Origin: Candidatus Thorarchaeota archaeon
GTDB lineage: Archaea; Asgardarchaeota; Thorarchaeia; Thorarchaeales; Thorarchaeaceae
Direction: 5' to 3'
Assembly: GCA_048882045.1 (NCBI GenBank)
Contig: JBHLRZ010000018.1
Coordinates: 1,886 to 65,885 of the forward strand
Length of the DNA: 64,000 nucleotides
Under the pieces are notes generated by a model. That model saw nothing but the letters and a program-made list of their open reading frames with translations, ran no database searches and was not told where the DNA came from. Made by a program: the position numbers and the translations under genes. Of this stretch, positions 7,569 through 64,000 are shown piece after piece; the first letter of the stretch is position 1, and each line of letters starts with the position of its first letter.

Positions 7569-7712
7569 ACGCGATTCCTGATGATTCGTGTATTTTCAAA
7601 TAACTGTTTCTTCATACAAAATTGCAACAATCAATGTATAAGGAAATAGGTAGTTCTTTGAGTGAACTATGCAATAATAAAGAAAGGGAAGGAGTGCATC
7701 AAACACTCCTTG

Positions 7713-8651: not shown

Positions 8652-8838
8652 TTTGATCGAGGATAGTGAATCTTGATTGCATTTTATTCGTCATATATTC
8701 GTAAGGGAGGTTTTTCCCAAAATAGAAGGTTAAATGTCCTCAAACTGAACTTCTAGGTTCAGGTTCATGCATTTTCGAAAACAGATTCACTATCTCCTCT
8801 TTGATGCACCCCGCAATGTATAACAGAAACAATCTAGA

Positions 8839-9843: not shown

Positions 9844-9860
9844 GTTCTTGGTGAAAGAAA

Positions 9861-11162: not shown

Positions 11163-11192
11163 AGCAAGAGAAAGGATGAAAGGACATGGAGA

Positions 11193-11801
11193 TTAGCGAA
11201 CAATACCAATTCTTACTGTTGACACGAGTGCCTCTTTGACTTTATCCCATTGGAACTTCATGCCCGCTGTTACCAAGAGGTTTGAAAGACCCCCGATTGC
11301 GCTCACCAAAATGGTTGCAACACTGTTTGCATCAACATCCTTTCGAAATTCACCAGTTTGAATTCCCTCTATAATTGCGTCCTCCAACAGTTTGATTACA
11401 GCCAGTTGCTGTTGTTTATGCTGTTTCCTCATCTTTGGTAACCTTGAGGAAGCTAACTGAAACTCCAAATCCATACGACACATTTCCTCTGAAACATCAC
11501 AAATCGAGTCAAAGACCAAATCTGCAGCTTTCTCCAATTTTGCCAAGGCTGTAGGTTCTTGATCAATTACCGATTTTAGTTGGTTGTAGTTAATAGTGGC
11601 AAATTTCTTCTGCAGTTCAAGGAATAGAGTTTCCTTGCTGTCAAAATAACCATAGATAGCCCCTTTGCTAAACCCACTCTCTTCGACAATGTCATCCATA
11701 GATGTTTCATGGTATCCCTTCTTTGAGAACATGGAAAGGGCTGCTAACATAATCTTCTCTTTCATCATAGTCTTATATTCGTCAGAGACTTTTGGAGACA
11801 A
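11193..11801 (-). CDS. TetR/AcrR family transcriptional regulator
   Basis: N-terminal HTH: KEKIMLAALSMFSKKGYHETSMDDIVEESGFSKGAIYGYFDSKETLF. Length 202 aa. TTG start preceded by GAGGTG. Sits downstream of the MFS gene on the same strand. Confidence 0.85.
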   Translation of the reverse strand: MSPKVSDEYKTMMKEKIMLAALSMFSKKGYHETSMDDIVEESGFSKGAIYGYFDSKETLFLELQKKFATINYNQLKSVIDQEPTALAKLEKAADLVFDSICDVSEEMCRMDLEFQLASSRLPKMRKQHKQQQLAVIKLLEDAIIEGIQTGEFRKDVDANSVATILVSAIGGLSNLLVTAGMKFQWDKVKEALVSTVRIGIVR

Positions 11802-11825
11802 ATCAACACCTCACTTCATATGTAT

Positions 11826-11845
11826 AAAACTGACTAGTCGGTTTA
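11826..11845. promoter_or_regulatory. Palindromic operator-like site AAAACTGACTAGTCGGTTTA immediately upstream of tetR, overlapping a TATA-like box
   Basis: Near-perfect inverted repeat (8/10 per half-site). The identical 19-mer recurs at 13335..13353. Confidence 0.55.
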
Positions 11846-11911
11846 ATATAAATCTTCTGTCCAAGGAGGGAGTAATGCCCCTGACATCTCAGGGGCAACA
11901 AAATAAACACC

Positions 11912-13276
11912 TCAATCCCTCTTATGGTCAGATTTGATCTCACCCAGGGTCATGATAGACCTGTTCATGCCACCAAAGATTCCAACGATTGCAAGGAGAA
12001 TACCTCCAATGAGATACCATGCCTGTAAACCAAAGGCTTCTCCGATGGCGCCAGCGATTGCGAGTCCAATCGGAGTCATTGCAGGTCCAAGACTGATTAA
12101 GACTGTGAATACACGTCCTTGAATAGCAGGGGGCACAATTGATTGTACAACTGCCATTATCGAACCACTTGCTAGTGGAATCATCATGCCAGCAACGAAC
12201 ATACCGACTATTGCGATCTGAATCATGTTTGAAGGAGCAAGTCCAACCAACACGATACTCGCTGAACCAAAGAGAAGAGCGACTACTGCTGTAAGCATTC
12301 TTCGTTTGAAGCCACCCCAGACACCTAGTGTGACACCTCCAAGAACCATTCCAATGCCCATCATCGACTCTATCCAAGCAAGTTCGAAAGCTCCACCTGA
12401 AAAGTGAAGGAGAACCAAGAGAGGAGTCAATGCGAATGAGGGGACTAAAACGAAGTTCGCAAACATCAATGATATAGTGATGAACTTACCACCCTTCCAG
12501 TTCTTCATATATGAGAAACCTTCGACTATGTCCTTGATGACACCTGACGCACCATTCTTGAGCTTCGACTCAACTAATGATGGTTGGGGAACATGAATCA
12601 TTAACAGGGGCAATACAGCCATTGCAGCTGTTGCAACATCCACAAGGAGGATTAATTGCATGGGGAGGAATACCAGTAGCAGAGCTCCCAAAGCTGGTGC
12701 AGCTATTCTTGCCAGTCCTTGTAGGGTCTGATACAACCCATTCATTCTTGAAAGATGCTCCTCTGGAACCATCAATGATGCAGATGCCTGGAGAGCTGGC
12801 CATTGGAAGCTGCCAAGGGTTGATCGAATTGCCATGACAGCGAATACATGAATCAGATCAACCACTCCTAAGGACCAAAGCAGAGACAAGGCAACAATTG
12901 ACAGAGCTGATAGAGTGTCTGAAGCGATCATGACTCTTTTTCGATTCCACCTATCTACGAAGGCTCCTGCAAATGGACTGACCAATACTTGAGGCAGAAT
13001 GACCATCATTGTTGCCAATGAAAGCATGACTGCACTCCCAGTCGAATAAGTAAGCCACCAGACAAGTGAAAATTGAACGAGAGCACTTCCTACTAGCGAG
13101 AAAGCCTGTCCGCCAAAGATCTTCATGTAGTCGCGGGTTTGGTTCCGCTCCATATCTGGTTTCTCAAGAGTTTCCTGAACTGTCACCGATTCAGATGGAG
13201 GAACCAGGATTGTAGCCTGATGAGTGCTTAGTGAGGCACTATCAGTTTTTGTTTCAGTTTTTGAAAGTAGAGCCAA
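11912..13276 (-). CDS. MFS transporter (efflux-type, 12 TM)
   Basis: Polytopic hydrophobic profile typical of MFS. Same strand as, and upstream of, the TetR gene. The N-terminal ~50 aa are non-hydrophobic, so the start may be internal. Confidence 0.75.
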   Translation of the reverse strand: MALLSKTETKTDSASLSTHQATILVPPSESVTVQETLEKPDMERNQTRDYMKIFGGQAFSLVGSALVQFSLVWWLTYSTGSAVMLSLATMMVILPQVLVSPFAGAFVDRWNRKRVMIASDTLSALSIVALSLLWSLGVVDLIHVFAVMAIRSTLGSFQWPALQASASLMVPEEHLSRMNGLYQTLQGLARIAAPALGALLLVFLPMQLILLVDVATAAMAVLPLLMIHVPQPSLVESKLKNGASGVIKDIVEGFSYMKNWKGGKFITISLMFANFVLVPSFALTPLLVLLHFSGGAFELAWIESMMGIGMVLGGVTLGVWGGFKRRMLTAVVALLFGSASIVLVGLAPSNMIQIAIVGMFVAGMMIPLASGSIMAVVQSIVPPAIQGRVFTVLISLGPAMTPIGLAIAGAIGEAFGLQAWYLIGGILLAIVGIFGGMNRSIMTLGEIKSDHKRD

Positions 13277-13301
13277 TTTTGTTTTCTTCCTTCGAATTAT
13301 T

Positions 13302-13353
13302 AAAACCGACTGGGCGGTTTTTATTATTAAAATAAACTGACTAGTCGGTTTAT
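13302..13353. promoter_or_regulatory. Two operator-like palindromes (AAAACCGACTGGGCGGTTT and AAACTGACTAGTCGGTTTA) in the divergent MFS/Lrp promoter region
   Basis: The second is identical to the site at 11826..11845. The first matches at 16/20 positions. A TTTATAAA box follows directly. Confidence 0.55.
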
Positions 13354-13448
13354 AAATGTTGCGTTTACCGTTAGAATCAGAATTTTGGTGTTCAGAGTTG
13401 GAACGTAATGGTTATTTCATGGAACATCTTCGTTGCGAAGGTTATACT

Positions 13449-14366
13449 ATGGATCTAGTAGACAAGAATCTCCTAACTGAGCTAACAAGAAACTGTAGAA
13501 CTTCATACCAGAATCTTAGCGTTAAGTTTGGTTTTACAGCCAATGCTGTAAGAAAACGAATTGAGAAGCTCATAGAGAATGGTACGCTTTATTCGTTCAC
13601 AATTCGACCAGCATTGAATTCAATGGATGCGAATATAGCCTTGACACTCATTGAAACAGATGGCAATGAATCAGCTGCAGAGTTCTTGAATTCGCTTGGC
13701 GAAAATGAGATGGTCGGAGAAGTCAATCCCATCGCTACCAGAGAGAGAGGTTATTACTTGGTCCTATCAGATTACATTGGGGCAGAAGGAATCATCAACC
13801 TTGGTGCTTTCTTCAGAAGGCTGAATCATGTTGAAAGAGTGACTATGCATCAAGTAGTAACGGATCAGTTTTACCATGGCAAGTTCGTTGAATTCAAACC
13901 ACTAGAGCTAAGAGTGATGAAGCATCTAATCGAAGATGCTAGGATGCCAATTAGCGAGTTAGCAGAGAGAGCGAATCTGACAGCACGTAGAGTTCGAAAC
14001 GTAATATCAAAGCTAGAAGAAGATCAAGGACTGATATTCACAATACGATGGAATACGGCAGCTGCTGGTGCTGTCAGGTTCTTTCTTGCGATCGATTACG
14101 ATTCGAAGAAGTCAGACTACGAAGTTGTGGTTAACTGGCTCCAGAAGGACTATCAAAAGGAGTTCTGGCTTTACTGGATTTCGACAAGTGAACCAATAAT
14201 CTTTGCGAGTTTTACAGTAGATTCAATTGAAGAAGCCAGAGGAATATCAATCGAGGTACAAGAGAATTCGATGGTAAAATCAGTTGGAACCTGGCTATGT
14301 TATCCACCTAGTAAATTCAAAACTTTCCCAGAGGTGTGGTTGGAAAGGCTGCTTGTTAAAGCATGA
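13449..14366 (+). CDS. Fused tandem Lrp/AsnC-family transcriptional regulator (two HTH + RAM units)
   Basis: First unit: MDLVDKNLLTELTRNCRTSYQNLSVKFGFTANAVRKRIEKLIENG. Second unit: LELRVMKHLIEDARMPISELAERANLTARRVRNVISKLEED. The ORF is open from 13356, but a TATA-like element overlaps that ATG, so 13449 (or 13419) is the more likely start. Confidence 0.7.
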   Translation: MDLVDKNLLTELTRNCRTSYQNLSVKFGFTANAVRKRIEKLIENGTLYSFTIRPALNSMDANIALTLIETDGNESAAEFLNSLGENEMVGEVNPIATRERGYYLVLSDYIGAEGIINLGAFFRRLNHVERVTMHQVVTDQFYHGKFVEFKPLELRVMKHLIEDARMPISELAERANLTARRVRNVISKLEEDQGLIFTIRWNTAAAGAVRFFLAIDYDSKKSDYEVVVNWLQKDYQKEFWLYWISTSEPIIFASFTVDSIEEARGISIEVQENSMVKSVGTWLCYPPSKFKTFPEVWLERLLVKA

Positions 14367-14492
14367 TGGAGATAATGAGTCCTAAACCATCCTTTGAATC
14401 TTCGAAGATGGTGAAACTGAGCAAAACTGCACAATCTGAAAGTTCTTTAGTTGGACATAATCAGCCCGTTGATTCAAGGACAGTAAACCAAA

Positions 14493-15770
14493 TTGATTGA
14501 AGAGGATCAAGAATTTACAGACGAGATCACTTCCAATTCAAAATACGAGGGGAGTGTTACCACTGTACTCAATCTCTCACTAGTGACATTTCTTATTCTT
14601 CTTGGTCTAAGTATGGTTGCCCCTATTCTTCCCACCTATGCGGAGAGCTTCCAAGTTTCGTACACGCTTGTGGGATTTGTTGTATCATCCTTTGCTGTCA
14701 CGCGTATGATCCTCGATATGCCAGCAGGTCTTCTCTCAAGAAGATTCGAAAAAAGGAGAATCATGATTACCGGCCTAGTGCTCCTTTCAACTTCTTCGGT
14801 TATTGCTGGTCTAGCCCCCGATTATATCACATTAGTAATTGCTAGATTGATTGAGGGGGCTGGTTCAGCTCTGTACGTAACAACAGCAACAGTGTATCTG
14901 GCTCAAATATCAGGAGAGAAAAAAAGAGGGCAATGGATGAGTCTCTATATGGGTATGCTTCTTCTTGGAGCTATCTTTGGACCCACCTTTGGAGGGATTC
15001 TTGCTGATGCTTATGACATTCGTGCACCATTTCTTGCCTATGCTGCAATCACAGGTCTTGCAGTGATTCCTACATTGATTTTACCAAATCTATCGAATTC
15101 GGGAAACACATCTGCACCTTTGCAGCTTGGAGAGATTCTTCGAGATATGCGGCAGGTCCTATCCAATTCCTCATTTCTCCTAGTTACATTTGCTGTCTTT
15201 ACGATGTTCTTTCTCCGTACAGGTGTGAGGAGCACACTAGTACCTCTATTCGCTGCAAACAACCTTGGACTAGACGCGGCGGCAATTGGACTTATTCTCA
15301 CAATTGGAGGTATAACAACTGCTCTTACAATCACACCTATGGGAAGTATTTCCGACAGAATAGGTAGAAAGACACCCCTTGCTTTTTGTCTCGTTTTATC
15401 TGCTGGAATAACCCTTCTCATTCCTTTCTCTACTGATATATTCATTCTATCAATAACAATTGGAATATACGGAGCTGTCATTGGTCTACAAGGTCCAAGT
15501 GCAGCCTATGTGACTGATCTTTCTCCCCAAGACAAATTGGAGATATCAATGGGACTCTATCGGATGATAAGCGATTTGGGATTTGTAATAGGCCCGCTTC
15601 TGCTCGGATATATAGCAGACTTGACTGCTATCCCAGTGGAAGGAGCATCACATTCAGGATTGATCACTGTAGTCCCCTTCATTGTGGTTTCAATCATTCT
15701 CATTCTTGCATTCTTTGCACTCATGAAAGCAGACGATCCAGTAAGACATAGAAACAAGACTGAAGGGTGA
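14493..15770 (+). CDS. MFS transporter
   Basis: 425 aa, about 12 TM. MFS-like loop motifs (GLLSRRFEKRRIM; DRIGRKTP). TTG start. Confidence 0.75.
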   Translation: MIEEDQEFTDEITSNSKYEGSVTTVLNLSLVTFLILLGLSMVAPILPTYAESFQVSYTLVGFVVSSFAVTRMILDMPAGLLSRRFEKRRIMITGLVLLSTSSVIAGLAPDYITLVIARLIEGAGSALYVTTATVYLAQISGEKKRGQWMSLYMGMLLLGAIFGPTFGGILADAYDIRAPFLAYAAITGLAVIPTLILPNLSNSGNTSAPLQLGEILRDMRQVLSNSSFLLVTFAVFTMFFLRTGVRSTLVPLFAANNLGLDAAAIGLILTIGGITTALTITPMGSISDRIGRKTPLAFCLVLSAGITLLIPFSTDIFILSITIGIYGAVIGLQGPSAAYVTDLSPQDKLEISMGLYRMISDLGFVIGPLLLGYIADLTAIPVEGASHSGLITVVPFIVVSIILILAFFALMKADDPVRHRNKTEG

Positions 15771-15845
15771 GTTGATGCAACCCCGTTAAGGAAGATGATA
15801 TAGCCGCTTGACTTCAATTTATATCATCAAGATATTTAGAACGCA

Positions 15846-17729
15846 GTGTCTGTGGGGTCAATGAATAATAAAGTCACTCTGTCCATAACAGTACTTGTTT
15901 TGACAGCATTCTTCTCCAGCATAACTGCACTTCTTTTCACAGTAGGACCCCAATACCCAGAGAGGATGTTTCAACCAGATCCCACTTCAGGCGAGTATGA
16001 TACGAGCTTTTGGAATCTCACGGAAGCAAGATCAGGTCCCCTCAACCTCAATAATATTTCAACAGTCATAGAGGATTACTATTGGCAAAATCAAACAATA
16101 CCATTGGAAGAGTGGCATTTTAGCTATGAGAGCGAGAAATACAGAGGGAACATCGTTAGAATCAACTCAGTGATTTTGAGAAGAGAGAACATTACTACAC
16201 CCTCACCGACCATTTTGTATCTCCATGGATATGGAGGTGAATATCAGGACTATATGGAATTATTTCGAGAGCTTGCTTCGCAAGGGTATATTGTGATGGG
16301 CATTGATCATCCGGGAAGAGGAGGGTCAACCGGTATCCCAGAGCTGACGCCCTACACATTTCTGAATGTAACAGACGGCCCCCAAGATTCGAATCTCTAT
16401 CATTCTGTTTGGGCAGGAGCTCGGGCGATAACATTACTCGAGTTAATTTCCTTTGTCAATAATAGTGCAATAGTCGTTTCAGGAGATTCGATGGGTGCTT
16501 GGACCACTCTTATAGTTTCAGCGATAGATTCACGGATAGATGGAGTGATTCCAATTATTGGAGCTGGAAATCTCATGAATTCCATAATATCAGGATCACT
16601 GATCAACAGTGTCATTGAACCTTCATACGCTTTTGACTCAACAGAGATGCAGAATATCATCAGGTGGTTTGATCCTATTGCTTATGCGAGAAACCTTACT
16701 CAACCGACACTAATGCTCTTCGGCTCCAATGACGACTTCTTCCCAATCATCTCAATGCAAGACACAATAGAAGTAATCAGTGCACCGCTCACACTGAGAG
16801 TAATCCCAAATTGGGGACACGCAATCTATGGGTCATTCTATGTTAATATCGAAAGCTGGATGGAGAGTCTTTTCCATAACGGAACTAAACTTTCAACCTT
16901 TGATGTTCGCTTCAATGAAACCTTATCGCTTCAAGGAGGGCTCGTTTCTATAAGTGCAAATACAACCTCTTCGAATAGAGCCTGGGTGTGTTGGCGTTCA
17001 GGCGAACCAGGAGCTGTGTGGCTAGTTGCAGAGATGACGCAAACGATTCAAGGAGATGTTCAGACCTACTCAGTTGATATTGCGCCACTCACCATTGGAA
17101 AAGTCACGTTCTTTGTGGTTGTGGAATTGGAGAACTCAATCATTCTTTCATCTTCAATCATGACCACCAGTGCAGGATTGATACTATTTCCAGCCCTCTT
17201 AGTTCTTTCAGGACTTTCACTTTTTGTTTTGATTAAAATAGGTGAGTGGAAACCCACGACACAAAATCTTGTACGAGAAGTACCGTATATGATTGGTATA
17301 TTCATGCTTGGCTTGGGATTTGTCCTACCGTTCATAGTCATTGAAGATAGAACTACTTTGTCTGTCCTGCAAATATTGGAGATGTATGGAAATTCATTCT
17401 TCTTGGCAGGATGGTTCCTGCCAAGTTTCATGGCTAGTGTCTGTTTTGTACTCGCGTTATCTGCATACAGACATCAGTTCCAATTTAGAGTTGCAGGAAT
17501 GCTCTGGACACCAGTCCTTGTGATATTGATCATCCTGTTCCTAATCTTATTTGGGATATTCGGATTTTTTGGAAGCATAATCCTCGTCAATTTGGGACTA
17601 GGAGGACCTATATTTTTGGCAGGAATTATTCTGATGCAACTTCTAGATAAGACTGTCAGAAGCAGATTGGAAAAGAGACTAGAGAATCTAATCGAGTTCG
17701 TAGAAGAGCTTTCAGAATCAATACCTTGA
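15846..17729 (+). CDS. Alpha/beta-hydrolase fold protein with N-terminal signal anchor and C-terminal polytopic membrane domain
   Basis: Nucleophile elbow VSGDSMGAW (G-x-S-x-G), HPGRGGSTG, and a His in NWGHAIYG. The C-terminal ~200 aa carry several TM helices. Confidence 0.65.
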   Translation: MSVGSMNNKVTLSITVLVLTAFFSSITALLFTVGPQYPERMFQPDPTSGEYDTSFWNLTEARSGPLNLNNISTVIEDYYWQNQTIPLEEWHFSYESEKYRGNIVRINSVILRRENITTPSPTILYLHGYGGEYQDYMELFRELASQGYIVMGIDHPGRGGSTGIPELTPYTFLNVTDGPQDSNLYHSVWAGARAITLLELISFVNNSAIVVSGDSMGAWTTLIVSAIDSRIDGVIPIIGAGNLMNSIISGSLINSVIEPSYAFDSTEMQNIIRWFDPIAYARNLTQPTLMLFGSNDDFFPIISMQDTIEVISAPLTLRVIPNWGHAIYGSFYVNIESWMESLFHNGTKLSTFDVRFNETLSLQGGLVSISANTTSSNRAWVCWRSGEPGAVWLVAEMTQTIQGDVQTYSVDIAPLTIGKVTFFVVVELENSIILSSSIMTTSAGLILFPALLVLSGLSLFVLIKIGEWKPTTQNLVREVPYMIGIFMLGLGFVLPFIVIEDRTTLSVLQILEMYGNSFFLAGWFLPSFMASVCFVLALSAYRHQFQFRVAGMLWTPVLVILIILFLILFGIFGFFGSIILVNLGLGGPIFLAGIILMQLLDKTVRSRLEKRLENLIEFVEELSESIP

Positions 17730-18986
17730 AACACGATGATACAGTACATAGAGAACGACTAACCAAATAGGATTGACAGGATCGAATCCAAGCAATAGGT
17801 AATGGAGAAGTATTCCAATTGTGAAGAACGCTAGTAGATTATTGGATCCGGACCAGAGATAATCCATTGTTCGATTATCATACTTAGACGTGTATAAGTC
17901 AAGCATTGATGGAGCCAGAAACGCATACCAGACTGCTAGAAATAGGAACCATGAGTCTGGATACACTAGAAGAATCAGGAAGGTCATATCTGCGAAGTGA
18001 TGAAGATAATCCTTCTCTCCTGATGGAGCTCTTACAAACTTAGCATAACTTCTCAAGAAAATGAAGCCACCTAGGATTAGGATGATGCTAATTTGGAGAA
18101 TGAACACGTCTGTTAATGGTATAAATGCCAAGATGAGTTTGGTTAGACTGGTACTATGTTGTCCTGTTAGATCCTCGAATAGATTCACTTGGATTAGTTC
18201 ACCTAATGCTTCTGGATAGACAATGAAAAACAGGATGTTGGGGACCATAGTGAGTAGAAAACCGACCAGTATTCCCGTGCATTGCTTGATTGGGATGGAG
18301 AAATGAAAGCGATCTTTCAGCGTTAGTGGAAATAGGAATGGGAAGAACAAAAGGAAGAAGGGTTTCAGAGTTATAGATAATCCAATTAGCGCACCTATGA
18401 GAAGAAAGTCTTTCCATTCTTTTCTTGTAGAAGTTTGAAGGAGAAAAAGTGCGAGCAGACTGAAGAGAATTGCGAGTTGAGTGATCTGCCCAAAAATGAT
18501 ATTGATGATATGTTGAGGTGCAATAAACACAAACAGAAGTGTCTTCTCAAAGTTCTTTGTCGTTGTTGTTACCCCTCTTTGGAAACTTATTTGGTAAACG
18601 AGATAGACAATTCCAAAATTGCAGAGCATCATGAAAGTGATATTGACCAAATAGAGACTGACCATTGGAACAACGACAAACAGCGCTGTGAACATTGCAA
18701 AGGATGGGAAATATCTGAAGGGCAGTCCATTGGGATTGACCAAATAGATGTCTGCTGGTGAATTCACAAACTTCTGACCTGCCTCATAGAAAACCCGAAA
18801 ATCAACAGTGAAGACTGTATCGAGGTATGTTCCTTGGAGAAGGAAGAAAGCAAATCCGGATAGAACACTAATATAATAGATCAGATTGAAAGCCAGACCT
18901 ACTTTCATCAGACGAGAATTTCTGAAGTATTCTATGAAGGAGGGATTGCCATCTAACTCCTGAGTCACCAGATTGGAACACCCCAC
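17718..18986 (-). CDS. Polytopic integral membrane protein (unknown function)
   Basis: 422 aa with more than 10 predicted TM segments. Overlaps the upstream gene by 22 nt, suggesting an operon. Confidence 0.5.
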   Translation of the reverse strand: MGCSNLVTQELDGNPSFIEYFRNSRLMKVGLAFNLIYYISVLSGFAFFLLQGTYLDTVFTVDFRVFYEAGQKFVNSPADIYLVNPNGLPFRYFPSFAMFTALFVVVPMVSLYLVNITFMMLCNFGIVYLVYQISFQRGVTTTTKNFEKTLLFVFIAPQHIINIIFGQITQLAILFSLLALFLLQTSTRKEWKDFLLIGALIGLSITLKPFFLLFFPFLFPLTLKDRFHFSIPIKQCTGILVGFLLTMVPNILFFIVYPEALGELIQVNLFEDLTGQHSTSLTKLILAFIPLTDVFILQISIILILGGFIFLRSYAKFVRAPSGEKDYLHHFADMTFLILLVYPDSWFLFLAVWYAFLAPSMLDLYTSKYDNRTMDYLWSGSNNLLAFFTIGILLHYLLLGFDPVNPIWLVVLYVLYHRVSRY

Positions 18987-48242: not shown

Positions 48243-51200
48243 CTACCTTCTTCTATAGAGGACACAAACAATGACCACTAGAGCAACAACACCACCAACA
48301 ATCAAGTAGAGAGTCATTGGATTGCCATCACCAGAGTAGGGAGTAGTTGGTGTAGTTCCAGGAGGTCCTTGTGCACTTGTGTATGCTACAAAGATTGGGT
48401 CACAGATGATATCATGACCTCCCCAGTTTTTGTAACCAGCTGTCATGAATAGCATGGATGCTTCAACATTCCAATTGGTCACAGAACTTCCTGAAGCAGA
48501 TTCATACATCAGACTGAAGGCTCCTATCGGAGCTGTGGAAGATCCTGAAGTATGGGAACTGCCATCATAGCCCCAAATATATGGGAGTCCGCCCATTTCT
48601 ACACTTGCATAGGGATTGTTTTCAGCTCCGAACTCATAGTAGTCTGCATTTTGGCTTGCACCATTGTTATCAGTAACAGGTTGATCACCAGCAGTATATC
48701 GTGTGACCGTTCCTGTGGCAAGAACTCCAAAGAAGTTCACAGCCAGACTTCGTCCGTCTAACACAGAATTATCAAAGTCATAGAGAGTCCAGTCACCAAT
48801 TGTCTGGTCAATCTTGAACGACACAGCATGATTCCAAGTCAATGGATCCGCAGCATCATAGTTGACCATATCAACATTGAAGCTGATATCAAATGCCATC
48901 TCGTCGACTATAGCGCTTGTGACCCAGTAGTCGAAGTTGGTTGCATTTAGACCAACGGCGCCCTCATAGGACTGTCTGAAATCCCAAGCACCTCTCAATG
49001 CTGATGAGTGTTCTACTTTCAATGGATAAATGGTCACATTCACATCAGTGATGGTAACCCCAAAGGTAACCTCAGTATCAGGACTGACTTGCACGTTGCC
49101 CGAGTTATTTGTAGCGCCAAATGGTCTACGGAGCGAGACTGCTCCGACCTCATCAACCAAGACGAGGTGTGTGACTTCGTCAGTCACCACCTGCCCTCCT
49201 TCAATTGAGAAATCTGGAGCACTCTCGGACGGGCCGAGACCATCATTGAAGATGAGTAATCCAGCGTATTGCGATCTGAAGTGTGCCAGTGTTGCTTGAT
49301 CTTCAGCGATACCTACCCAGAAGTTCTGAGTAGTTCCCCAAGCAAACCATGTAGTAGTCCACTTACCTTGTTCTAGACCGGGAATAGCTGTTATATCAAG
49401 TGTCCAGTTCCTGGAAAGCCAAGAAACGTACTCATAACCCGGTGTTGGTAGATTGTTATCAAAGTCAGCCCACATCAGATTTTGAATGTCAGCCATCTCA
49501 CTTGCACTAATTGATGATCCATCAGAGGCGTGATACCAGTAGAAGGTTTCGTTGGCGTTAAACCAGATATTCTGTTCTACAACACCCATCCAGTTCTGAG
49601 ACCAGAATTCATCTCCAGGTGCACCAGGTGAAGGATCAAAGCCAACACCTACCAACATTCCTTCAACTGTCACATTGCCCCAGTCTTCCCAATAACCAGT
49701 CCTTTTGATATAGTATTGGTCATCTACTGTGAAGATATTTCCATCGAGGTCGATAGCACCGTTCTCCGTCACAATCCAAATAGGAGGTGTGTAGGAGGGC
49801 ACTTCACCAAGACGGAGGTGTCGTGGACTCCAGAGAATGTCATCTGAAACATCGATAACATTGTAGTAATCTGTCCAAGTGGCAATTAGAGCATTATACT
49901 GTTCAACTGTAAGTTCAGTACCATTCAGATGGTCTGGGAAGGCCCAATCTGTTCCATTCCACCATCGAACATTCTGAATCAGACCTACTTTAATTGAGGC
50001 TTTATCAATGACCATATCAGGTGCTTCAGCATCAAAGCTGAACTCGACAATGACAGTCGAAAGGTCATCACCAAGTTTGATTACGAAGCCAGATACTGTC
50101 AAATGATTTGCAGGAATTGAGATAGGTCCCCATAGTTTACCAAGTTCTCTTGAATACATTGTTATTTTGTACTGACTAGATGTTGAATGAGTGCCTAATT
50201 CATAATCGAGAATCGCCGTATGTGTGATATCAACTCTCCAATAATGAGTGGCATTACCATCCATTATTGAACCATGAACTTCGATGGTCACATCCTTTAG
50301 TTCTGAAGTGATGTTAAAGAAAGCGCTTGGCTCAGGTTCAATTACCAAAGAACCATCTATCAAATTGACATCTCTGTGAACCAATATTGTTAGATTCAAT
50401 GGATCGCCCTGTAGAGCATTATTAGCAATCTGACCTATATCATCGAAAACAAACGCTTCTATGAAAGTTGTACGAAATGAAAACTTCAATGTCTGACGGT
50501 CAGAGATCTCAGGTCGAGCAATAATGGGATTACCGCTGGTATCAAGAACAGTGACGAGATCCATTATGGGTTGCACAGTCCCACCATATTCCAATCCTGG
50601 ATCGAGATCCGTTTCATTTGTGAAATATCCAGCCCACTGAACTCTATGACCTGCATCAAAGACTCCTGTGAGAACAGGATCCTCAACATAGTATGTGCTT
50701 AGGTCAATTGTTGAGTTTTCGATAATTGAGAATACGGGGAACCACATCATGATTCCGCCACCAAGATCGATTGGGTCCCAAGTTAGGTTGAGGTATCCAG
50801 CTACTGGAAATGCACCAGTAGAATTTAGAATGAATACCATTGTTGGTAGTAGTTCGAAAGTCCTATTGGAGAACTTGAGATCTCTATCAAATAAAGCAGA
50901 AGGTCCCTCAGAATCCAATCTGTCGGGATAGGACCAAGTCACATTGATTTTGTATTGCGCATCAAAGGTAAGTTGTTCAACTAATGGAATTAGACAACTT
51001 CCAATCTCAGCTGACGACCGCATTCTAAGTATGAAGGTGTCATTGACATCTGCATAGTGCAGAATTCTTCCAGTTTCATCAACGATGTCTGCATAGTAGT
51101 AATCAGGTAGGGAAAAATCTAGTGGATTAACTGCCATTCCAAGTCCAATTGGAGGAGTTCCATATCTTCCAGCTACTGAAGCTGTCAACCATGAGGACGA

Positions 51201-51806
51201 AACGGGTCTTCCATTTGTATCAATCACCTGCATACCGGTTGTAAGTATCATTGGTGCAAGTGCAATCTCATATGTGATAGCAAAAACTACATTATAGAAA
51301 TCAGCTTCTTCTGTGAAATCGGAGTTCGATGAATCTAGAGACATGAACCTCGCCGGTTGTGGTTCTTCAGAGCCTGGTACATATCTGAAACCTAGACTGT
51401 TCCATTCATTTGAAGTGGCATTGTATTCCAATCCAAATACTGGAGCTCTTGGACCTGCTCTTGTACCCCAGAACTGAATTACATCTAGAATATTACCTTC
51501 ACCAAGGAATGACTTTGGAATGATCATATTTACGGTAAGGTCCATTCCAACTTCAATCCTATAGCTGTTTTCTGCAATATCTGTCCCATTGTCATATTCT
51601 ATCCAGATGTCTGGTTGTGGGCCAAATATCCAGTCGGAGTGTTGTTCAGAATGTTCGAATTGTCGTGTATCATTAGCAACCTCCCAAGCAACATGTAAAA
51701 CTGGATCACGTTGACTCTGAGCGATAGCAGGACTAATCGAGCCAACAACACTCACGAGCAGTATAACGATTAGTGTTATTGTGTAAACTTTCCTCATTTT
51801 ATCCAC
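48243..51806 (-). CDS. Large secreted surface protein (1187 aa) with C-terminal TM anchor (…LYLIVGGVVALVVIVCVLYRRR)
   Basis: Signal peptide MRKVYTITLIVILLVSVVGSISPAIA. Sequon-rich. Not a paralog of the 526/4029 pair. Confidence 0.75.
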   Translation of the reverse strand: MDKMRKVYTITLIVILLVSVVGSISPAIAQSQRDPVLHVAWEVANDTRQFEHSEQHSDWIFGPQPDIWIEYDNGTDIAENSYRIEVGMDLTVNMIIPKSFLGEGNILDVIQFWGTRAGPRAPVFGLEYNATSNEWNSLGFRYVPGSEEPQPARFMSLDSSNSDFTEEADFYNVVFAITYEIALAPMILTTGMQVIDTNGRPVSSSWLTASVAGRYGTPPIGLGMAVNPLDFSLPDYYYADIVDETGRILHYADVNDTFILRMRSSAEIGSCLIPLVEQLTFDAQYKINVTWSYPDRLDSEGPSALFDRDLKFSNRTFELLPTMVFILNSTGAFPVAGYLNLTWDPIDLGGGIMMWFPVFSIIENSTIDLSTYYVEDPVLTGVFDAGHRVQWAGYFTNETDLDPGLEYGGTVQPIMDLVTVLDTSGNPIIARPEISDRQTLKFSFRTTFIEAFVFDDIGQIANNALQGDPLNLTILVHRDVNLIDGSLVIEPEPSAFFNITSELKDVTIEVHGSIMDGNATHYWRVDITHTAILDYELGTHSTSSQYKITMYSRELGKLWGPISIPANHLTVSGFVIKLGDDLSTVIVEFSFDAEAPDMVIDKASIKVGLIQNVRWWNGTDWAFPDHLNGTELTVEQYNALIATWTDYYNVIDVSDDILWSPRHLRLGEVPSYTPPIWIVTENGAIDLDGNIFTVDDQYYIKRTGYWEDWGNVTVEGMLVGVGFDPSPGAPGDEFWSQNWMGVVEQNIWFNANETFYWYHASDGSSISASEMADIQNLMWADFDNNLPTPGYEYVSWLSRNWTLDITAIPGLEQGKWTTTWFAWGTTQNFWVGIAEDQATLAHFRSQYAGLLIFNDGLGPSESAPDFSIEGGQVVTDEVTHLVLVDEVGAVSLRRPFGATNNSGNVQVSPDTEVTFGVTITDVNVTIYPLKVEHSSALRGAWDFRQSYEGAVGLNATNFDYWVTSAIVDEMAFDISFNVDMVNYDAADPLTWNHAVSFKIDQTIGDWTLYDFDNSVLDGRSLAVNFFGVLATGTVTRYTAGDQPVTDNNGASQNADYYEFGAENNPYASVEMGGLPYIWGYDGSSHTSGSSTAPIGAFSLMYESASGSSVTNWNVEASMLFMTAGYKNWGGHDIICDPIFVAYTSAQGPPGTTPTTPYSGDGNPMTLYLIVGGVVALVVIVCVLYRRR

Positions 51807-57378: not shown

Positions 57379-59340
57379 GTGATTGAGGGACATGATTGGA
57401 GTTCTCGAGGGATGAGTATGGAAGAAGATGACTCTTCGTTTATTGGACGCCGACTGAAGCAGACGGGAGACCTATTGCTTGGTGGTGCTCAGAAACAGGT
57501 CGTCGATTACAGGAGCAAGTTCGAGGGGCTTGTGGGAGCCTATGATGATTTCCTCTCGAACCTGCTTGTATCTTACAGTGATGCATTATTCAATCTCGAC
57601 TTTGTTGACAAGTTCTTTGGCAAAAGAAAACTGGCTTTCGCTGGAATCGATGGTACGGTACTAAAGTATGATGTCTTTGACCTCGTGGTCTTCTTTGCAG
57701 GAGCCTATAGTTCACACGGGGGCATAGTAATAGAGGAATCTGGAGAGGGGAAAATCACCTATGATGAGAAATATTTGGAAAAAGGGATGGGAGTATCAAG
57801 TGTCCTTCCGGTATACATCAACGAAATACCTCTCATTGATCAAACACTACTCGTACGTAGCGAGGATGGTCTTATCGACAATTCGATAACATTCACTGAT
57901 GCATGGGTTGTTGATAATTCTGCTTTTGCAGACTATCTGATGGGACTTGCAGAGTTCTACCTTGGATACAAGTTGGTCAGTATTGAAAATCCAGTGGATA
58001 TCTTACTGATTGATCGTGTGTTCTCCTCAGAAATAGCTTCATTCTATGCTGAAACCTCAGACTTCCGGCTGAGCCTTGATCACGAGTGTGGGATTATCGG
58101 ACATAAGATAGATGGTCAACCTTTCAACAAGACAGAGTGGGTCAATGCAAGGAAGTTGTTTGGAAATCTAGACCTCGGTACACCACCTGCTAGAGGAGAG
58201 TTTCTGTTGTCGAGAGTTGTGACAGAACTCCTTAATGAAACGAGTCACTCAATGACCAGGGATGAGATAGCTGCAAGACTCTGGTTGAAAGACGAGTTTC
58301 ATCTAGCAAGACTCGACAAAGAACTCGAGAAAGGAATCAGAGGTTCTGGAGAGGCGGAAGGCATCATCATTCGCAAGGGAAAACAATTCATCGTGAAGCC
58401 GCAGTATAAGGACATCAAATCACGAGTGAGGAAACTTGTTGAAGAGGTCTGTGAGAGGATGTTCTCAGCAGACCCCAATGTGTCCTACGAAGAGAGGTTC
58501 AAGATTGATGGACGTTGGATCACGACAAATGACCTTGCGTTCCTGTCACTCATGTCGTTGTATCTCATGGTTGAGAAATGTTGGGAGAACCCGACACTGC
58601 TGGTTGGAGTGGCAAAGGACACTTCTGCACGAGACCTCAAGAGACAGGTTCTACCTGTATTGAATTACGTTGGTCGATTCAATGGTGGTTTTGGAGATAA
58701 GGGACAGGATACACCTGACACAGATCGCATGATACTCCAATGGATTTCTCTTCAGGAACAAGAAAAGATCAAGGTCCCATGGTCAACGGTAGAGTATGAT
58801 ACAGCGTTCAAGACAATCATACCTCATTACAAAAGAACACCCGGGCTTGTTTCAGGAGCCCGTCGAAACCAGATATCTCTAGAGAAGACATTCGCCAAGT
58901 CCTACTTCCAGCTGTGTCAGGCTGCTTCCGATCCCAAACTTCGAAGCAATGTACTACTCTATGACAGGTTGATATATCCGGAGTTTGATTGTGGAACAGA
59001 CAGACTAACGACTCTCCCACACGAGTATGAGAACAGGCCAGATAGTCCTGAACCTGTTGAGGTAGTCTTCTATGAGGGTGTAGACAACCAAGTTCAATCA
59101 TTCATAATTACTCTGTTCAAGGGAATGACCAGCACGAGTATTCCCGAACTCTTTGGGCACATCCGTCCGCTGTATATAGCTGACAAAGTAGCCAAATATT
59201 ACTGGAGCCAGTTCAAGGGAATGGTCGAGAGTACTGGCGTTTGGCTGGTCAATCGCCAAGATCTGAGAGAATTCCTATTCTATCTTAGTAGCTTTAGAGA
59301 AAGGAGGTCAAGTGTTGAGCAATCAAGAAAGACAAACTAG
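57379..59340 (+). CDS. NurA-like nuclease domain protein (653 aa) with long uncharacterised C-terminal extension
   Basis: KLAFAGIDGTVLKYD resembles NurA motif I (aaVDGS). Overlaps the downstream HerA-like gene by 29 nt. Confidence 0.45.
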   Translation: MIEGHDWSSRGMSMEEDDSSFIGRRLKQTGDLLLGGAQKQVVDYRSKFEGLVGAYDDFLSNLLVSYSDALFNLDFVDKFFGKRKLAFAGIDGTVLKYDVFDLVVFFAGAYSSHGGIVIEESGEGKITYDEKYLEKGMGVSSVLPVYINEIPLIDQTLLVRSEDGLIDNSITFTDAWVVDNSAFADYLMGLAEFYLGYKLVSIENPVDILLIDRVFSSEIASFYAETSDFRLSLDHECGIIGHKIDGQPFNKTEWVNARKLFGNLDLGTPPARGEFLLSRVVTELLNETSHSMTRDEIAARLWLKDEFHLARLDKELEKGIRGSGEAEGIIIRKGKQFIVKPQYKDIKSRVRKLVEEVCERMFSADPNVSYEERFKIDGRWITTNDLAFLSLMSLYLMVEKCWENPTLLVGVAKDTSARDLKRQVLPVLNYVGRFNGGFGDKGQDTPDTDRMILQWISLQEQEKIKVPWSTVEYDTAFKTIIPHYKRTPGLVSGARRNQISLEKTFAKSYFQLCQAASDPKLRSNVLLYDRLIYPEFDCGTDRLTTLPHEYENRPDSPEPVEVVFYEGVDNQVQSFIITLFKGMTSTSIPELFGHIRPLYIADKVAKYYWSQFKGMVESTGVWLVNRQDLREFLFYLSSFRERRSSVEQSRKTN

Positions 59341-61234
59341 CCGAAGTCTTTTCACAGACTTTGATGGAGCCTTCGAAGGAAGGTTGGCAAGGGTCATCTC
59401 TGTGGCTGCAAATTACACTTCTGAATGGGCGGGTTCAGCAGCTCGATATGACTGTCGGATCAAGATTCGATACAACAAGGAGCTGATGGCTCAGCTAGAG
59501 GAAGGCATGTTGTTAGCTGTGAAAAACTTCAGAGGACAGTCAAAGAGAGCCATTAGTGAGGGCATCGTACGTTATACTGTCATGGTAATTAGTAAGGTGT
59601 GGCCACTTCACTATGGCCTTGGCGGAGTAAGTGACAGCCATTACTACCCTCTACAAATGGAAATAATCGAACAGTCTGTTCCTGATTGGTCGACTGACGA
59701 CCAGGCAACTATGATGGTCCAAATGAATGCTGTTCCGATCAACTACGACCTCATTATCGACAAAAAAGGAGAGATAGAGTTCAGAAAGGGATTCTCATAT
59801 CCATTGGTTGGCGAGAAAGCTCATGTCATTGACTTGGAAACTGTCGATCTCATCTACAATGACAAGGTGAAGAAAGCTATGGGATTTGCCAAGAAGACAA
59901 CATCAGAAGACCCCAAGAAAGATCCTAGAGTTGGAGTACTCAGGATGTTCATGGAATCGGATCACCAGGTCCCAATCTATGTCGATTTGGCGAAGCTTGT
60001 CAGATACCACTTTGGTGTATTCAGCTTCACAGGCGGCGGAAAAAGCAATCTGATGTCTAATCTATTCAGACGAATCCTCTATCACGATAAGGACACTAAA
60101 CTTGTGTTATTCGATATCTCGTGTGAGTATCCCTTCTTGCTTAGTGATGTCTTCATGGATCCCAAAATCCAAAGTACCATAGTTTTGGAGGAGGACCCCA
60201 AGACCCCAGAAAACTTCGCTCGCTCAGTTGTCAAACCACGAGACTTCGAAGAAGATCCTCGAGCCAATGACATCTTGAGGGCTATATATGACACTGGAAA
60301 AGTCACATTCTACAACCGACCACTCACACAAGTTCCAACATATGGTAGCCTCTTACAGGAGATGCGAGGGTTGCGGACAGAGAACTCTGGTAGACCTACA
60401 TATGTTCAAGCAATGGATGAGCTCATAGACTTCCTTGCTTCATATGTGAATTCTACAGGTAAGACTGAGCATGAAGAGATTGACGATGCTTTTGTGGATC
60501 TACTTGACCAAGAGGCACGAAAAGCTATCGCGACATTTCAAGTCCATGACAAATCTACACTTTATGCATGGGCCACAACAAGGAATACCCTCAAGAAGGT
60601 TCTTTCAAGAGCTAAAAGTGCAAAGCAAACTGGTGTAACCATCAAGGAACTGATGAAGAAGTTCAGTGGTCCTGAACGAGTTATCTGCATCTCCATAGCA
60701 GATCCAGACACTCTTCGAGACCTAGTCATCAAACTGACAAGTGCAGCACTTCGATATCGAAAACGCAGCTTTGAAATTAAACCCCATATTCTGTTCGTCT
60801 TTGATGAGGCTCAAGAGTTCATCCCATCAGGTGCAAGTGGCCATCTAGCACAGACGAGTGCAGCAGTAGAAAGACTCCTTCGGCAGGGGAGAAAGTATGG
60901 TCTCGGAGGAGCTATTGCAACCCAGAGGATAGCGTATCTCAATACGAACATACTTCAGCAGCTACACACCTTCTTTGTTGGGACATTACCTCGTCCCTAT
61001 GACCGGACTGTGGTGAGTAGTTCATTTCAGATCGACCTGAGTATCCTTGACAAGACCCTAGATTTCCCACCTGGGTCGTGGTTGTTATCAAGTTACATCG
61101 CCACCGGACTTGACAGCGTTCCAGTCTTTGTCAAAGCGGACAACTCAGAGGATGTTTTGAGGAAACATATTGCATCAATCGCATCCAGCGCTAAGAAAGG
61201 AGCGTCTGATTCGGAACAGACCAAACTAGAATGA
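59312..61234 (+). CDS. herA: HerA-like (DUF87 / FtsK-HerA superfamily) ATPase
   Basis: HAS-barrel-like N-terminus, Walker A FSFTGGGKSN, Walker B ILFVFDEAQEF, and the HerA-type GLGGAIATQRIAYLNTNILQQ. GTG start 5 nt after AAGGAGGT. Confidence 0.8.
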   Translation: MLSNQERQTSRSLFTDFDGAFEGRLARVISVAANYTSEWAGSAARYDCRIKIRYNKELMAQLEEGMLLAVKNFRGQSKRAISEGIVRYTVMVISKVWPLHYGLGGVSDSHYYPLQMEIIEQSVPDWSTDDQATMMVQMNAVPINYDLIIDKKGEIEFRKGFSYPLVGEKAHVIDLETVDLIYNDKVKKAMGFAKKTTSEDPKKDPRVGVLRMFMESDHQVPIYVDLAKLVRYHFGVFSFTGGGKSNLMSNLFRRILYHDKDTKLVLFDISCEYPFLLSDVFMDPKIQSTIVLEEDPKTPENFARSVVKPRDFEEDPRANDILRAIYDTGKVTFYNRPLTQVPTYGSLLQEMRGLRTENSGRPTYVQAMDELIDFLASYVNSTGKTEHEEIDDAFVDLLDQEARKAIATFQVHDKSTLYAWATTRNTLKKVLSRAKSAKQTGVTIKELMKKFSGPERVICISIADPDTLRDLVIKLTSAALRYRKRSFEIKPHILFVFDEAQEFIPSGASGHLAQTSAAVERLLRQGRKYGLGGAIATQRIAYLNTNILQQLHTFFVGTLPRPYDRTVVSSSFQIDLSILDKTLDFPPGSWLLSSYIATGLDSVPVFVKADNSEDVLRKHIASIASSAKKGASDSEQTKLE

Positions 61235-61295
61235 AACTCACGTGGTATTTTTATCACCTGAAGAAGACTCGATGGTGCAGAAATGAGGCAGGCTG

Positions 61296-61859
61296 ATGAT
61301 TATCGACTATGGATGCAGGACGGTAGGTGTCAAAGTTGTTTTCTTCGGACCAGCCATGAGTGGAAAGACTACTGCAATCCATTGGCTGTTCAAAAGCCTC
61401 GGTGTTGAGGAGGTCACATCTATTGAGAATACGATCGGTCGTACTCTATTCATGGACTTTGGAGTGATTCCGTTCTCCCTCGGTGACTCTTGGACAATCA
61501 ATGCTCATGTTTGGTCAGCAACAGGACAGGACTTCTACAGGTCAACAAGGGAGGTGGTTCTGGTTGGTGCGGATGGAATCATCTTCGTAGCAGATGCACA
61601 AGAACATCTCCAAGAGGAGAATGTGAAGAGTTGGCAAGAGCTGGTTTCGACTATGGCAGAGAATAAGGAGCTACTCCCTCTTGTCGTCTTCCTCAACAAA
61701 ACAGACCTCATGGACATAGTAACTGAGGAAGACCTTCGAAGTCATCTTCGCATTCCTACTTCTATCCCAATATTCAAGGGAATTGCTCGTGACGGGCACA
61801 ATGCCATTGAAACATTTCAGTGGTTATTTCAGACTGCGATGAAAGCCAATTTTACTTAG
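61296..61859 (+). CDS. MglA-like small Ras-superfamily GTPase
   Basis: G1 KVVFFGPAMSGKTT, RTLFMDF, G3 WSATGQDFY, GADGIIFVADAQ, G4 LNKTDL. Closely parallels MglA blocks (KIVYYGPGLCGKTT / TLFFDF / TVPGQVFY / NKRDL). Confidence 0.75.
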   Translation: MIIDYGCRTVGVKVVFFGPAMSGKTTAIHWLFKSLGVEEVTSIENTIGRTLFMDFGVIPFSLGDSWTINAHVWSATGQDFYRSTREVVLVGADGIIFVADAQEHLQEENVKSWQELVSTMAENKELLPLVVFLNKTDLMDIVTEEDLRSHLRIPTSIPIFKGIARDGHNAIETFQWLFQTAMKANFT

Positions 61860-63817: not shown

Positions 63818-64000
63818 TTACCTTCTGCGCATGAAGACTACAGCAGCAATGATTGCTATCACAGCAACTCCAGCTCCAATGATGAGGAGAGTGGTATCGC
63901 CTCCACCATCAGTTGTTGTGGGAGTAGGATCGGATGTTGTAGGTGTAGTAGATTCAGGAGGTACGATATCTATTGTGTCCTTCACAACTATGTTGTCAAC
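63818..64000 (-). CDS. C-terminal end of another secreted surface protein (Thr/Pro linker + TM anchor + RRR); 5' part lies outside the window
   Basis: Minus-strand translation: …VDNIVVKDTIDIVPPESTTPTTSDPTPTTTDGGGDTTLLIIGAGVAVIAIIAAVVFMRRR*. Confidence 0.6.
   Translation of the reverse strand, partial: VDNIVVKDTIDIVPPESTTPTTSDPTPTTTDGGGDTTLLIIGAGVAVIAIIAAVVFMRRR

Follow-up and report, generated by a model that had tools for sequence, protein, structure and literature searches.

Introduction

The general expectation from thermophilic archaea is that the ATPase HerA and the nuclease NurA accompany Mre11-Rad50. NurA forms a toroidal homodimer that docks on a HerA hexamer, and the family is marked by an aspartate on strand 1, a glutamate on helix 1, an aspartate at the end of strand 4, a lysine on the central sheet within a G-I-x-K-D-S motif and a tyrosine ahead of the last helix. 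The nuclease of S. solfataricus has the catalytic residues D58, E116 and D133, an essential lysine (K202) and the tyrosine Y298 (PMC3326311). HerA-nuclease pairs located outside the Mre11-Rad50 operon are already a known concept, because HerA/NurA clusters 57 and 58 have been listed as type III-coevolved (Shah et al., 2018; PMC6546367). Here we describe a NurA-HerA gene pair in a 64,000-nucleotide stretch of contig JBHLRZ010000018.1 from a Candidatus Thorarchaeota archaeon (assembly GCA_048882045.1), the whole of which we call the window. An earlier note on this DNA had read positions 57379–61859 as a stand-alone cassette of a NurA-like gene, a HerA-like gene and a gene for an MglA-like small GTPase, without Mre11-Rad50. 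We confirm the pairing of NurA and HerA, but find little support for a cassette of three genes, and a link to the GTPase retains a small residual chance. We assign a probability of about 75% to the reading of positions 57418–61234 as a two-gene, coupled NurA-HerA paralog with a likely chromosomal role, beside which the GTPase is a dispersed paralog that is not required.

Layout and Coupling of the Gene Pair

All three open reading frames (ORFs) are on the forward strand, at 57379–59340 (653 aa from a GTG codon), 59312–61234 (640 aa) and 61296–61859 (187 aa), and the closest relatives of the three proteins are labeled Thorarchaeota. The ORF list also confirmed the spacing that the earlier note had described: an overlap of 29 nt between the NurA-like and HerA genes (59312–59340), a gap of 61 nt between HerA and the GTPase (61235–61295), and an MFS gene that ends at 57359, 19 nt ahead of the GTG at 57379. 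The 653-aa frame is present as claimed, but the gene probably starts at the ATG at 57418, because homologs are 639–640 aa long and a GAGG motif (57407–57410) precedes this codon by 7 nt. This start shortens the protein to 640 aa and widens the gap after the MFS gene to 58 nt. The features of the pair are as follows.

57418–59340, forward strand: long and divergent NurA-like nuclease gene (the mechanical ORF reaches upstream to the GTG at 57379)
57628–58053, forward strand: N-terminal half of the NurA core, RNase H-like (ORF residues ~84–225, with D91, E192 and D212)
58186–58404, forward strand: core of the winged helix-turn-helix (ORF residues ~270–342, within a larger insertion at ~226–380)
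58525–59253, forward strand: C-terminal half of the NurA core (ORF residues ~383–625, with GVAKDTS containing K413 and D414, H594, and IADKVAK containing D602)
59303–59314, forward strand: GGAGG (59303–59307), spaced by 4 nt from the GTG that starts the HerA gene, both read from the sequence within the NurA-like gene at its 3′ end
59312–61234, forward strand: divergent HerA-family ATPase/translocase gene, 640 aa
60032–60046, forward strand: Walker A of HerA, G241-G-G-K-S245 in the translation, invariant in alignment A6
60803–60808, forward strand: Walker B acidic pair of HerA, D498-E499 in LFVFDEAQ, invariant in A6 and aligned to the Walker B region of T. kodakarensis HerA
60917–60928, forward strand: ATQR motif of HerA, A536–R539, at least 90% conserved in A6 and aligned with VSQR of T. 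kodakarensis HerA

The position of the GGAGG motif and GTG start within the upstream gene, together with an overlap of 26–29 nt that is maintained in the called genes of thorarchaeotal relatives, indicates on sequence grounds that the NurA-like and HerA genes are translationally coupled. The MFS gene, which had been thought a possible member of the same transcript, was rejected as part of the unit: it is a lineage-specific syntenic neighbor, inverted in two relatives (L001 and L043) and absent in Bathyarchaeia.

A Predicted NurA-Family Nuclease With a Split Core

The predicted structure and the relatives of the upstream protein place it in the NurA family of nucleases by transitive membership, at the level of a superfamily or a divergent subfamily. 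An AlphaFold2 model built from the family alignment (predicted local distance difference test, pLDDT, 84.4; predicted TM-score, pTM, 0.86) matched the RNase H-like fold of NurA. Indeed, the top 10 Foldseek matches in the PDB were all NurA structures (E 8e-9 to 1e-6, probability 1.0), from the T. kodakarensis HerA-NurA complex, P. furiosus and S. solfataricus, and other RNase H-like nucleases ranked after them, with TM1739 and EndoV next. An exhaustive search with hidden Markov models expanded the family to 399 clusters (50% identity), of which many are full-length. The window protein falls below detection with the Pfam NurA profile (PF09376), whereas two distant members of its family exceed the cutoff of 21 bits (P0205, 27.4 bits; P0164, 25.0 bits). 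In these distant members, profile positions ~2–107 cover residues ~70–215 and positions ~113–254 cover residues ~376–598. Positions 113–254 map onto the C-terminal half in P0142 and positions 2–107 onto the N-terminal half in relatives. The two halves of the profile flank an insertion of ~150 residues and the NurA domain therefore runs through the entire protein, rather than forming an N-terminus followed by ~300 uncharacterized residues as had been proposed.

The catalytic positions support the same assignment. We mapped them through the canonical NurA of Thorarchaeota because searches of PDB sequences miss NurA: the family profiles A1, A2 and A4 retrieved weak winged-helix matches only, and even the canonical thorarchaeotal NurA fails to reach the PDB NurA sequences by phmmer. 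Full-length hhalign in local mode was limited by the insertion to the C-terminal motifs, and the N-terminal halves were therefore aligned separately. The C-terminal motifs GIxKDS and GYPxPLxxADxxAK co-align with the canonical protein, and K413 in GVAKDTS aligns with the canonical GIVKDSRS (E=2.7e-4). The N-terminal halves co-align at IDG, the helix glutamate and LLLD, a weak match (E 0.003–0.007) that pairs D91, E192 and D212 with D72, E141 and D160 of the canonical protein. Hence, D91, E192 and D212 correspond to D58, E116 and D133 of S. solfataricus NurA, and K413 to the essential K202. The FAGIDGT segment noticed earlier as a NurA motif I is present, and its D91 is invariant across the family. 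In the broad alignment used for counts of invariance (A2; 18 sequences, 22–60% identity), the invariant residues include D91-G92, E192, D212, G410, K413, D414, D449, D474, R530, G593 and D602. The model places D91 (IDGT) on strand 1, E192 on the following helix, D212 at the end of the strand ILLID and D602 (IADK) on the last long helix.

The insertion has the helix-strand-helix-helix-hairpin pattern in the model, with local Foldseek matches to MarR-type regulators (4b8x, 3r0a). Weak matches to HTH_20, MarR and RQC were found in relatives with Pfam, and to Lrp-type helix-turn-helix, Z-alpha and SelB winged-helix domains in searches of PDB sequences. This winged-helix insertion, as predicted from model and matches, probably binds DNA.

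A Divergent HerA Partner

The second gene encodes a HerA-type ATPase, as the earlier note had recognized. The protein has the DUF87 domain (PF01935; E=4e-16, 60.2 bits), Walker A, Walker B (VFDE, residues 496–499) and the ATQR motif. Its AlphaFold2 model (pLDDT 73, with low stretches at residues 33–44, 101–132 and 544–605) matched S. solfataricus and T. kodakarensis HerA on top in Foldseek, over ~600–680 columns and at ~4e-18 (3.7e-18 for S. solfataricus), with defense HerAs ranked below. The N-terminal region of the model (residues 23–100) is beta-rich, without a Pfam HAS-barrel match and with parts of low pLDDT. The score of 50 bits with the NCBIfam model helicase_HerA (NF040819), which has a cutoff of 970, shows that the protein is not a canonical HerA, and it shares ~27% identity over ~190 aa with the canonical HerA of Thorarchaeota. 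The best PADLOC model is PDLC01055 (‘HerA type III coevolved’), matched partially, in two stretches, at 145 bits.

A Second Pair in Thorarchaeota, Apart From Mre11-Rad50

Thorarchaeota also carry a canonical NurA-HerA pair at a separate locus, and the window pair is therefore a second, divergent paralogous pair in this lineage. The canonical NurA scores 82.8 bits with PF09376 and has relatives named ‘DNA double-strand break repair nuclease NurA [Candidatus Thorarchaeota archaeon]’; the canonical HerA scores 108 bits with DUF87 and has a weak, sub-threshold HAS-barrel match. No Mre11 or Rad50 was found among the large ORFs of the window, in a crude motif (regex) screen of the window and 88 loci, or in the flanks of the canonical pair, about 10 kb each way. 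As the canonical pair also lacks Mre11-Rad50 over this distance, a ‘stand-alone’ NurA-HerA is the norm in the thorarchaeotal lineage. Thus, the earlier note was correct that none lies near the window pair, but this is not special to it. A literature search for Mre11, Rad50 or NurA in Thorarchaeota or Asgard archaea returned nothing relevant.

The canonical pair has a neighborhood of its own. In one locus (L121), a 673-aa DUF460 protein is encoded two genes past the canonical HerA (13817–15838), followed by LSM, Kae1/TsaD, a RIO/Bud32-like kinase, S15 and a weak Pcc1 match, which include components of KEOPS. This DUF460/KEOPS block is a possible functional neighborhood of the canonical NurA-HerA.

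Conservation and Genomic Context

A scan of one genome per species with alignment A3 (A2 was too divergent for this use) confirmed 272 loci of the NurA-like family. Of the best 80, 38 came from Thorarchaeota and close relatives and 42 from Bathyarchaeia. Identity was 53–84% in the thorarchaeotal loci and 38–41% in Bathyarchaeia. A HerA ortholog is encoded directly downstream in all thorarchaeotal loci with room for it and in 37 of the 42 bathyarchaeial ones. Furthermore, clustering of 1019 flanking ORFs left the nuclease (86 loci) and HerA (79 loci, directly downstream of the nuclease gene) as the only families common to both lineages. The adjacency of the two genes is, therefore, conserved well beyond this genome.

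In these two lineages, the settings of the pair are those of ordinary metabolism. Synteny in Thorarchaeota runs GDE, MFS, nuclease, HerA, a variable slot, ribA and an FrhB-like gene, and the window neighbors include GDE, MFS, ribA, FrhB-like and beta-lactamase-fold genes. In Bathyarchaeia the neighbors, judged by eye, are apparent 2-oxoacid:ferredoxin oxidoreductase subunits and radical-SAM, GNAT and PadR-type genes. The sequence conservation of the pair is comparable to that of its housekeeping neighbors. We found no CRISPR-like array in the 64-kb window, no cas or defense genes among the window ORFs scanned, and no modification, cas or other defense genes near the pair in the thorarchaeotal and bathyarchaeial loci. 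Thus surrounded by housekeeping genes, the pair has been passed on vertically in both Thorarchaeota and Bathyarchaeia.

In some members of the family (L008, L055, L056 and L068), HerA does not adjoin the nuclease. The copy in L008 (8001–9908; 30% identity) stands alone, with a Hef-type helicase/ERCC4 nuclease and an HhH-GPD glycosylase encoded within 6 kb, and the copy in L068 is shortened to 487 aa. In L052 and L057, ~2 kb are inserted between nuclease and HerA. Farther from the pair, the window holds on its reverse strand a 1187-aa ORF without a Pfam match (48243–51806), a related large protein being encoded near GDE in 24 thorarchaeotal loci, and two tandem ORFs of ~1170 aa (526–7568), each with Big_7/Big_13 Ig-like domains, which are probably surface proteins.

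A Chromosomal Role or Defense

We propose that the NurA-like gene yields a 640-aa nuclease whose RNase H-like core, split by the winged helix, keeps D91, E192, D212 and K413, and that the second gene yields a HerA-family P-loop ATPase. Judging from the HerA-NurA complexes of solved structure, HerA would use ATP, as a hexamer, to pull or unwind DNA, and the DNA would pass into a dimeric NurA and be cut there. The winged-helix insertion would be positioned to add recognition of DNA or of a partner. The most likely role of such a machine would be in chromosomal DNA-end or DNA processing, either in repair or recombination or in the surveillance of linear DNA. We favor a chromosomal role because the pair is inherited vertically among housekeeping genes and alongside the canonical pair.

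Several points weigh against this reading. The 640-aa protein had no match in Pfam (E<=0.1), NCBIfam or PADLOC, and PDB sequences searched with a 23-sequence family profile returned no NurA. What connects the protein to NurA is a predicted structure, together with transitive matches and weak profile–profile alignments. For example, the hhalign matches to canonical NurA, mutually consistent, have E values of 1e-4 to 7e-3 and probabilities of 5–55%, and the Foldseek TM-scores are modest because of the insertion (0.25–0.33 on the query and 0.35–0.62 on the target, with a large root-mean-square deviation). The active-site-adjacent tyrosine is replaced by histidine in this clade: the position of Y298 is H594 (FGHIRPL) in Thorarchaeota and most sequences of the intermediate alignment A3 (one Tyr), and Tyr in the distant clade (IGYPDPL) and in canonical thorarchaeotal NurA (EYGIPTP). 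The neighboring GTPase is intact and apparently under constraint where retained, and the presence of its paralog near the canonical NurA-HerA is an unexplained coincidence. Finally, the CRISPR type III-associated profile of HerA and the defense-like settings of bacterial relatives would also suit a role in defense rather than repair.

The last point underlies the main alternative, unlikely though far from negligible, that the pair is an anti-mobile-element defense effector, a HerA-driven nuclease that became fixed in Thorarchaeota and Bathyarchaeia. Such an effector would be comparable to SIR2-HerA, DUF4297-HerA, type III HerA/NurA and the restriction arms of phosphorothioation or deazaguanine systems. 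HerA-nuclease pairs outside Mre11-Rad50 are established defense modules (PDB matches; PMC6546367), and PDLC01055, the best PADLOC model for the window HerA, is matched end-to-end by the HerA partners of distant family members (324 and 276 bits). These distant members (22–26% identity) are also encoded directly upstream of a DUF87 gene, in other settings. In L092, the pair (8001–12028) is embedded in a dnd phosphorothioation cluster (5890–17938), and in L089–L091 it is followed by genes for DpdA-like, DUF6884 (PADLOC PDC-M57A) and QueT proteins. The nearer relatives argue against the defense reading with their stable, lineage-wide synteny among metabolic genes, the lack of modification, cas or defense genes nearby and a conservation like that of housekeeping neighbors. 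Furthermore, there is no CRISPR array in the window and the nuclease partner matches no PADLOC model.

The loci of the distant relatives are informative in their own right. The order in L092 is DndB, the pair (with a HerA of 694 aa), Aminotran_5, DndE, DndD-like SMC_N/AAA_23, DndC-like PAPS_reduct and DndB, with a gene weakly matching Cap4_nuclease close by. By analogy with DndFGH or TdpAB, the L092 pair looks like a candidate restriction arm of the phosphorothioation system. L089 (8001–13051) and L090 (410–5154) are on bacterial-looking contigs. The pair in L089 is followed by a DpdA-like gene (PADLOC 1.4e-10) and a DUF6884 gene matching the candidate PDC-M57A, and the pair in L090 by DpdA-like, DUF6884 and also QueT genes. 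This suggests that the L089 and L090 pairs are linked to a 7-deazaguanine-type DNA modification.

The MglA-Like GTPase

The gene downstream of HerA encodes an MglA-like GTPase, in agreement with the earlier note. Its features are as follows.

61296–61859, forward strand: MglA-like small GTPase gene, 187 aa (G1 GPAMSGKT at residues 18–25, R49, G3 SATGQ at 74–78, G4 NKTD at 134–137)
61248–61288, forward strand: AT-rich TTTTTATC (61248–61255) and GAGG (61285–61288, 7 nt before the ATG), read from the sequence

A phmmer search of the PDB placed MglA of M. xanthus and T. thermophilus (1.1e-26, 96.6 bits) far ahead of Ypt7/Rab (~3e-9), and the alignment with MglA conserves RTLF(M/F)DF and (SAT/TVP)GQ. 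The conserved residues include what we take, from MglA structures, to be the switch arginine and the catalytic glutamine. The gene may have its own promoter, TTTTTATC being a possible archaeal TATA-like box; a sigma-70/terminator scan gave chance-level results, its bacterial model not being applicable to archaea. The GTPase gene and ribA (GTP cyclohydrolase II) converge, and the GTPase stop shares 4 nt (61856–61859) with the 3′ end of ribA, an overlap that leaves no room for a terminator between them.

The GTPase is not a constant partner of the pair. Twenty-nine species-representative thorarchaeotal loci were assessable at the slot between HerA and ribA: two carry a full-length GTPase, one a shortened remnant and 26 none, ribA typically starting 14–80 nt past HerA in the latter. 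The gene is also absent from this position in all 42 bathyarchaeial loci and in the distant relatives looked up. The remnants are true truncations before G3 and represent two different alleles, one in L020, L117 and L118 and another in L116. L116 (4299–5011) is the closest relative found, with a nuclease that is 91% identical. There, a deletion took the 3′ two-thirds of the GTPase gene as well as ribA, and an FrhB-like gene follows directly.

A metagenome scan with the GTPase recovered two types of loci. Type 1 is the HerA-ribA slot. Type 2 is a same-strand block of HTH_3, HD, Roadblock/LC7, a 306-aa protein, an MglA-like GTPase, CTP synthase (PyrG), canonical NurA, canonical HerA and a 188-aa protein. 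Type-2 GTPases are 65–69% identical to the window GTPase, and paralogs at the Roadblock-linked locus span 56–70%. The Robl_LC7 gene is two genes upstream of the type-2 GTPase, with the 306-aa gene in between, and the closest GTPase paralog and its Roadblock/MglB-like gene lie ~1.8 kb upstream of the canonical NurA-HerA. By contrast with the type-2 locus, the scan of ORFs around the window GTPase revealed no Robl_LC7 gene (the window ends 2.1 kb downstream, at 64000), as the earlier reading had it. In a neighbor-joining tree, the type-2 GTPases are monophyletic (73–100% identity) and the slot copies basal (61–90%, median 68%), a pattern consistent with an old dispersed duplication, after which constraint was relaxed and copies were lost patchily. 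Indeed, the slot GTPase diverges faster than its paralog.

The Roadblock-linked block recurs in Thorarchaeota (L094, 1013–6582, and also L095–L103, L106, L108, L110, L112–L115 and L121). It comprises a GPN-loop GTPase (ATP_bind_1) on the opposite strand, HTH_3, HD+HD_assoc_2, a 315-aa Roadblock/LC7 protein, the 306-aa protein, which has no Pfam match, and the MglA-like GTPase. The block looks like an MglA/MglB-type module with extra partners.

Absence from 26 of 29 loci and from Bathyarchaeia, two independent truncation alleles, faster divergence and upstream signals of its own make the GTPase an optional, lineage-specific and often decaying neighbor that is not integral to the module. In the two-gene reading that we prefer, it would be a dispersed paralog of the Roadblock-linked thorarchaeotal GTPase that lodged between HerA and ribA in one thorarchaeotal sub-lineage and has since been lost or shortened in most descendants. 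We consider it improbable that the three genes form a cassette in which the MglA-like GTPase regulates or localizes the NurA-HerA machine. In favor of a cassette, the window GTPase is intact, with MglA-type G1, switch arginine, G3 and G4, and the GTPase is retained at the slot in several lineages with copies that are 61–90% identical. Paralogous GTPases lie near both paralogous NurA-HerA pairs, the closest paralog in the conserved block of Roadblock, the 306-aa protein (u306), MglA, PyrG, canonical NurA and canonical HerA; by a rough estimate, random insertion beside the only other HerA would have a chance of ~1e-3 in a genome of ~3500 genes. However, slot copies have been lost repeatedly, and pyrG separates the GTPase from NurA in type-2 loci. 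The lineage that diverges most (L112/L113) has kept the Roadblock-MglA block but has no NurA-HerA beside it. Moreover, no Roadblock partner adjoins the window copy, and a literature search found no link between MglA and HerA. It is equally improbable that MglA-like GTPases and their Roadblock/MglB-like partner are functionally coupled to NurA-HerA in Thorarchaeota; if true, a small GTPase would control, by localization or switching, the DNA translocase-nuclease of an Asgard archaeon. The results correct the GTPase-HerA cassette idea and leave one real coincidence, the GTPase paralogs near both pairs.

A fragment or degenerate copy of the canonical mre11-rad50-herA-nurA operon, as the expectation from thermophilic archaea might have it, was rejected as exceedingly improbable, because both genes are full-length, conserved and intact in >80 loci, the canonical NurA-HerA is separate in Thorarchaeota with a HerA only ~27% identical, and Mre11 and Rad50 were found neither in the window and the 88 loci nor in the ~10 kb around the canonical pair.

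Comparison With Known Systems

Thorarchaeota and Bathyarchaeia carry two NurA-HerA machines, the second with a winged-helix-split nuclease that Pfam, NCBIfam and PADLOC miss. In NCBI and JGI records the nuclease is labeled ‘hypothetical protein’ and HerA ‘ATP-binding protein’ or ‘HerA-like ATPase’. The locus provides a handle on a widespread, unannotated family and bears on DNA-end processing in Asgard and TACK archaea and on the catalog of HerA-based defense effectors.

The MglA/MglB polarity module of M. xanthus and T. thermophilus shares with the window GTPase a G3 (SATGQ) without the canonical aspartate and the conserved switch arginine and glutamine, and the thorarchaeotal paralog has a Roadblock/LC7 gene two genes upstream. 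Unlike that module, the window GTPase has no adjacent Roadblock/MglB gene; its neighbors are HerA and a convergent ribA, and it has often been lost. Defense systems with HerA and an effector (SIR2-HerA/Nezha, DUF4297-HerA, TdpAB, DndFGH-type) also combine a HerA-fold ATPase with a nuclease or other effector, and distant relatives of the window pair sit with dnd, DpdA-like or DUF6884 genes. However, the effector of the window pair is NurA-like rather than SIR2, DUF4297 or TdpB, and its context is housekeeping, without a modification partner. The type III-coevolved HerA/NurA pairs (Shah et al., 2018; PDLC01055) provide the best profile for the window HerA and are likewise non-canonical and independent of Mre11-Rad50. 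They differ from the window pair, which has no type III cas genes or CRISPR array nearby, a long NurA-like partner without a PADLOC match and a HerA that matches PDLC01055 only in part.

Among the closest counterparts are the archaeal NurA-HerA end-resection complexes of S. solfataricus (2ygk/4d2i), P. furiosus (3tal) and T. kodakarensis (9x1l–9x1p). As in those systems, a nuclease gene adjoins an ATPase gene at the window locus. The modeled nuclease shares their RNase H-like NurA fold, Asp-Glu-Asp positions and conserved lysine, and the ATPase shares Walker A, Walker B and the Q-R motif, on a predicted HerA fold. By analogy, the mechanism of a hexameric translocase feeding a dimeric nuclease is likely shared as well. 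In contrast to archaeal NurA proteins of about 330–450 aa, the window nuclease has 640 aa, a ~150-aa winged-helix insertion in its core and histidine in place of the active-site-adjacent tyrosine, and it is missed by PF09376 and by PDB sequence searches. Its HerA is far below the helicase_HerA cutoff and distant from the canonical thorarchaeotal protein, and the pair that they form coexists with a canonical NurA-HerA pair in the same phylum.

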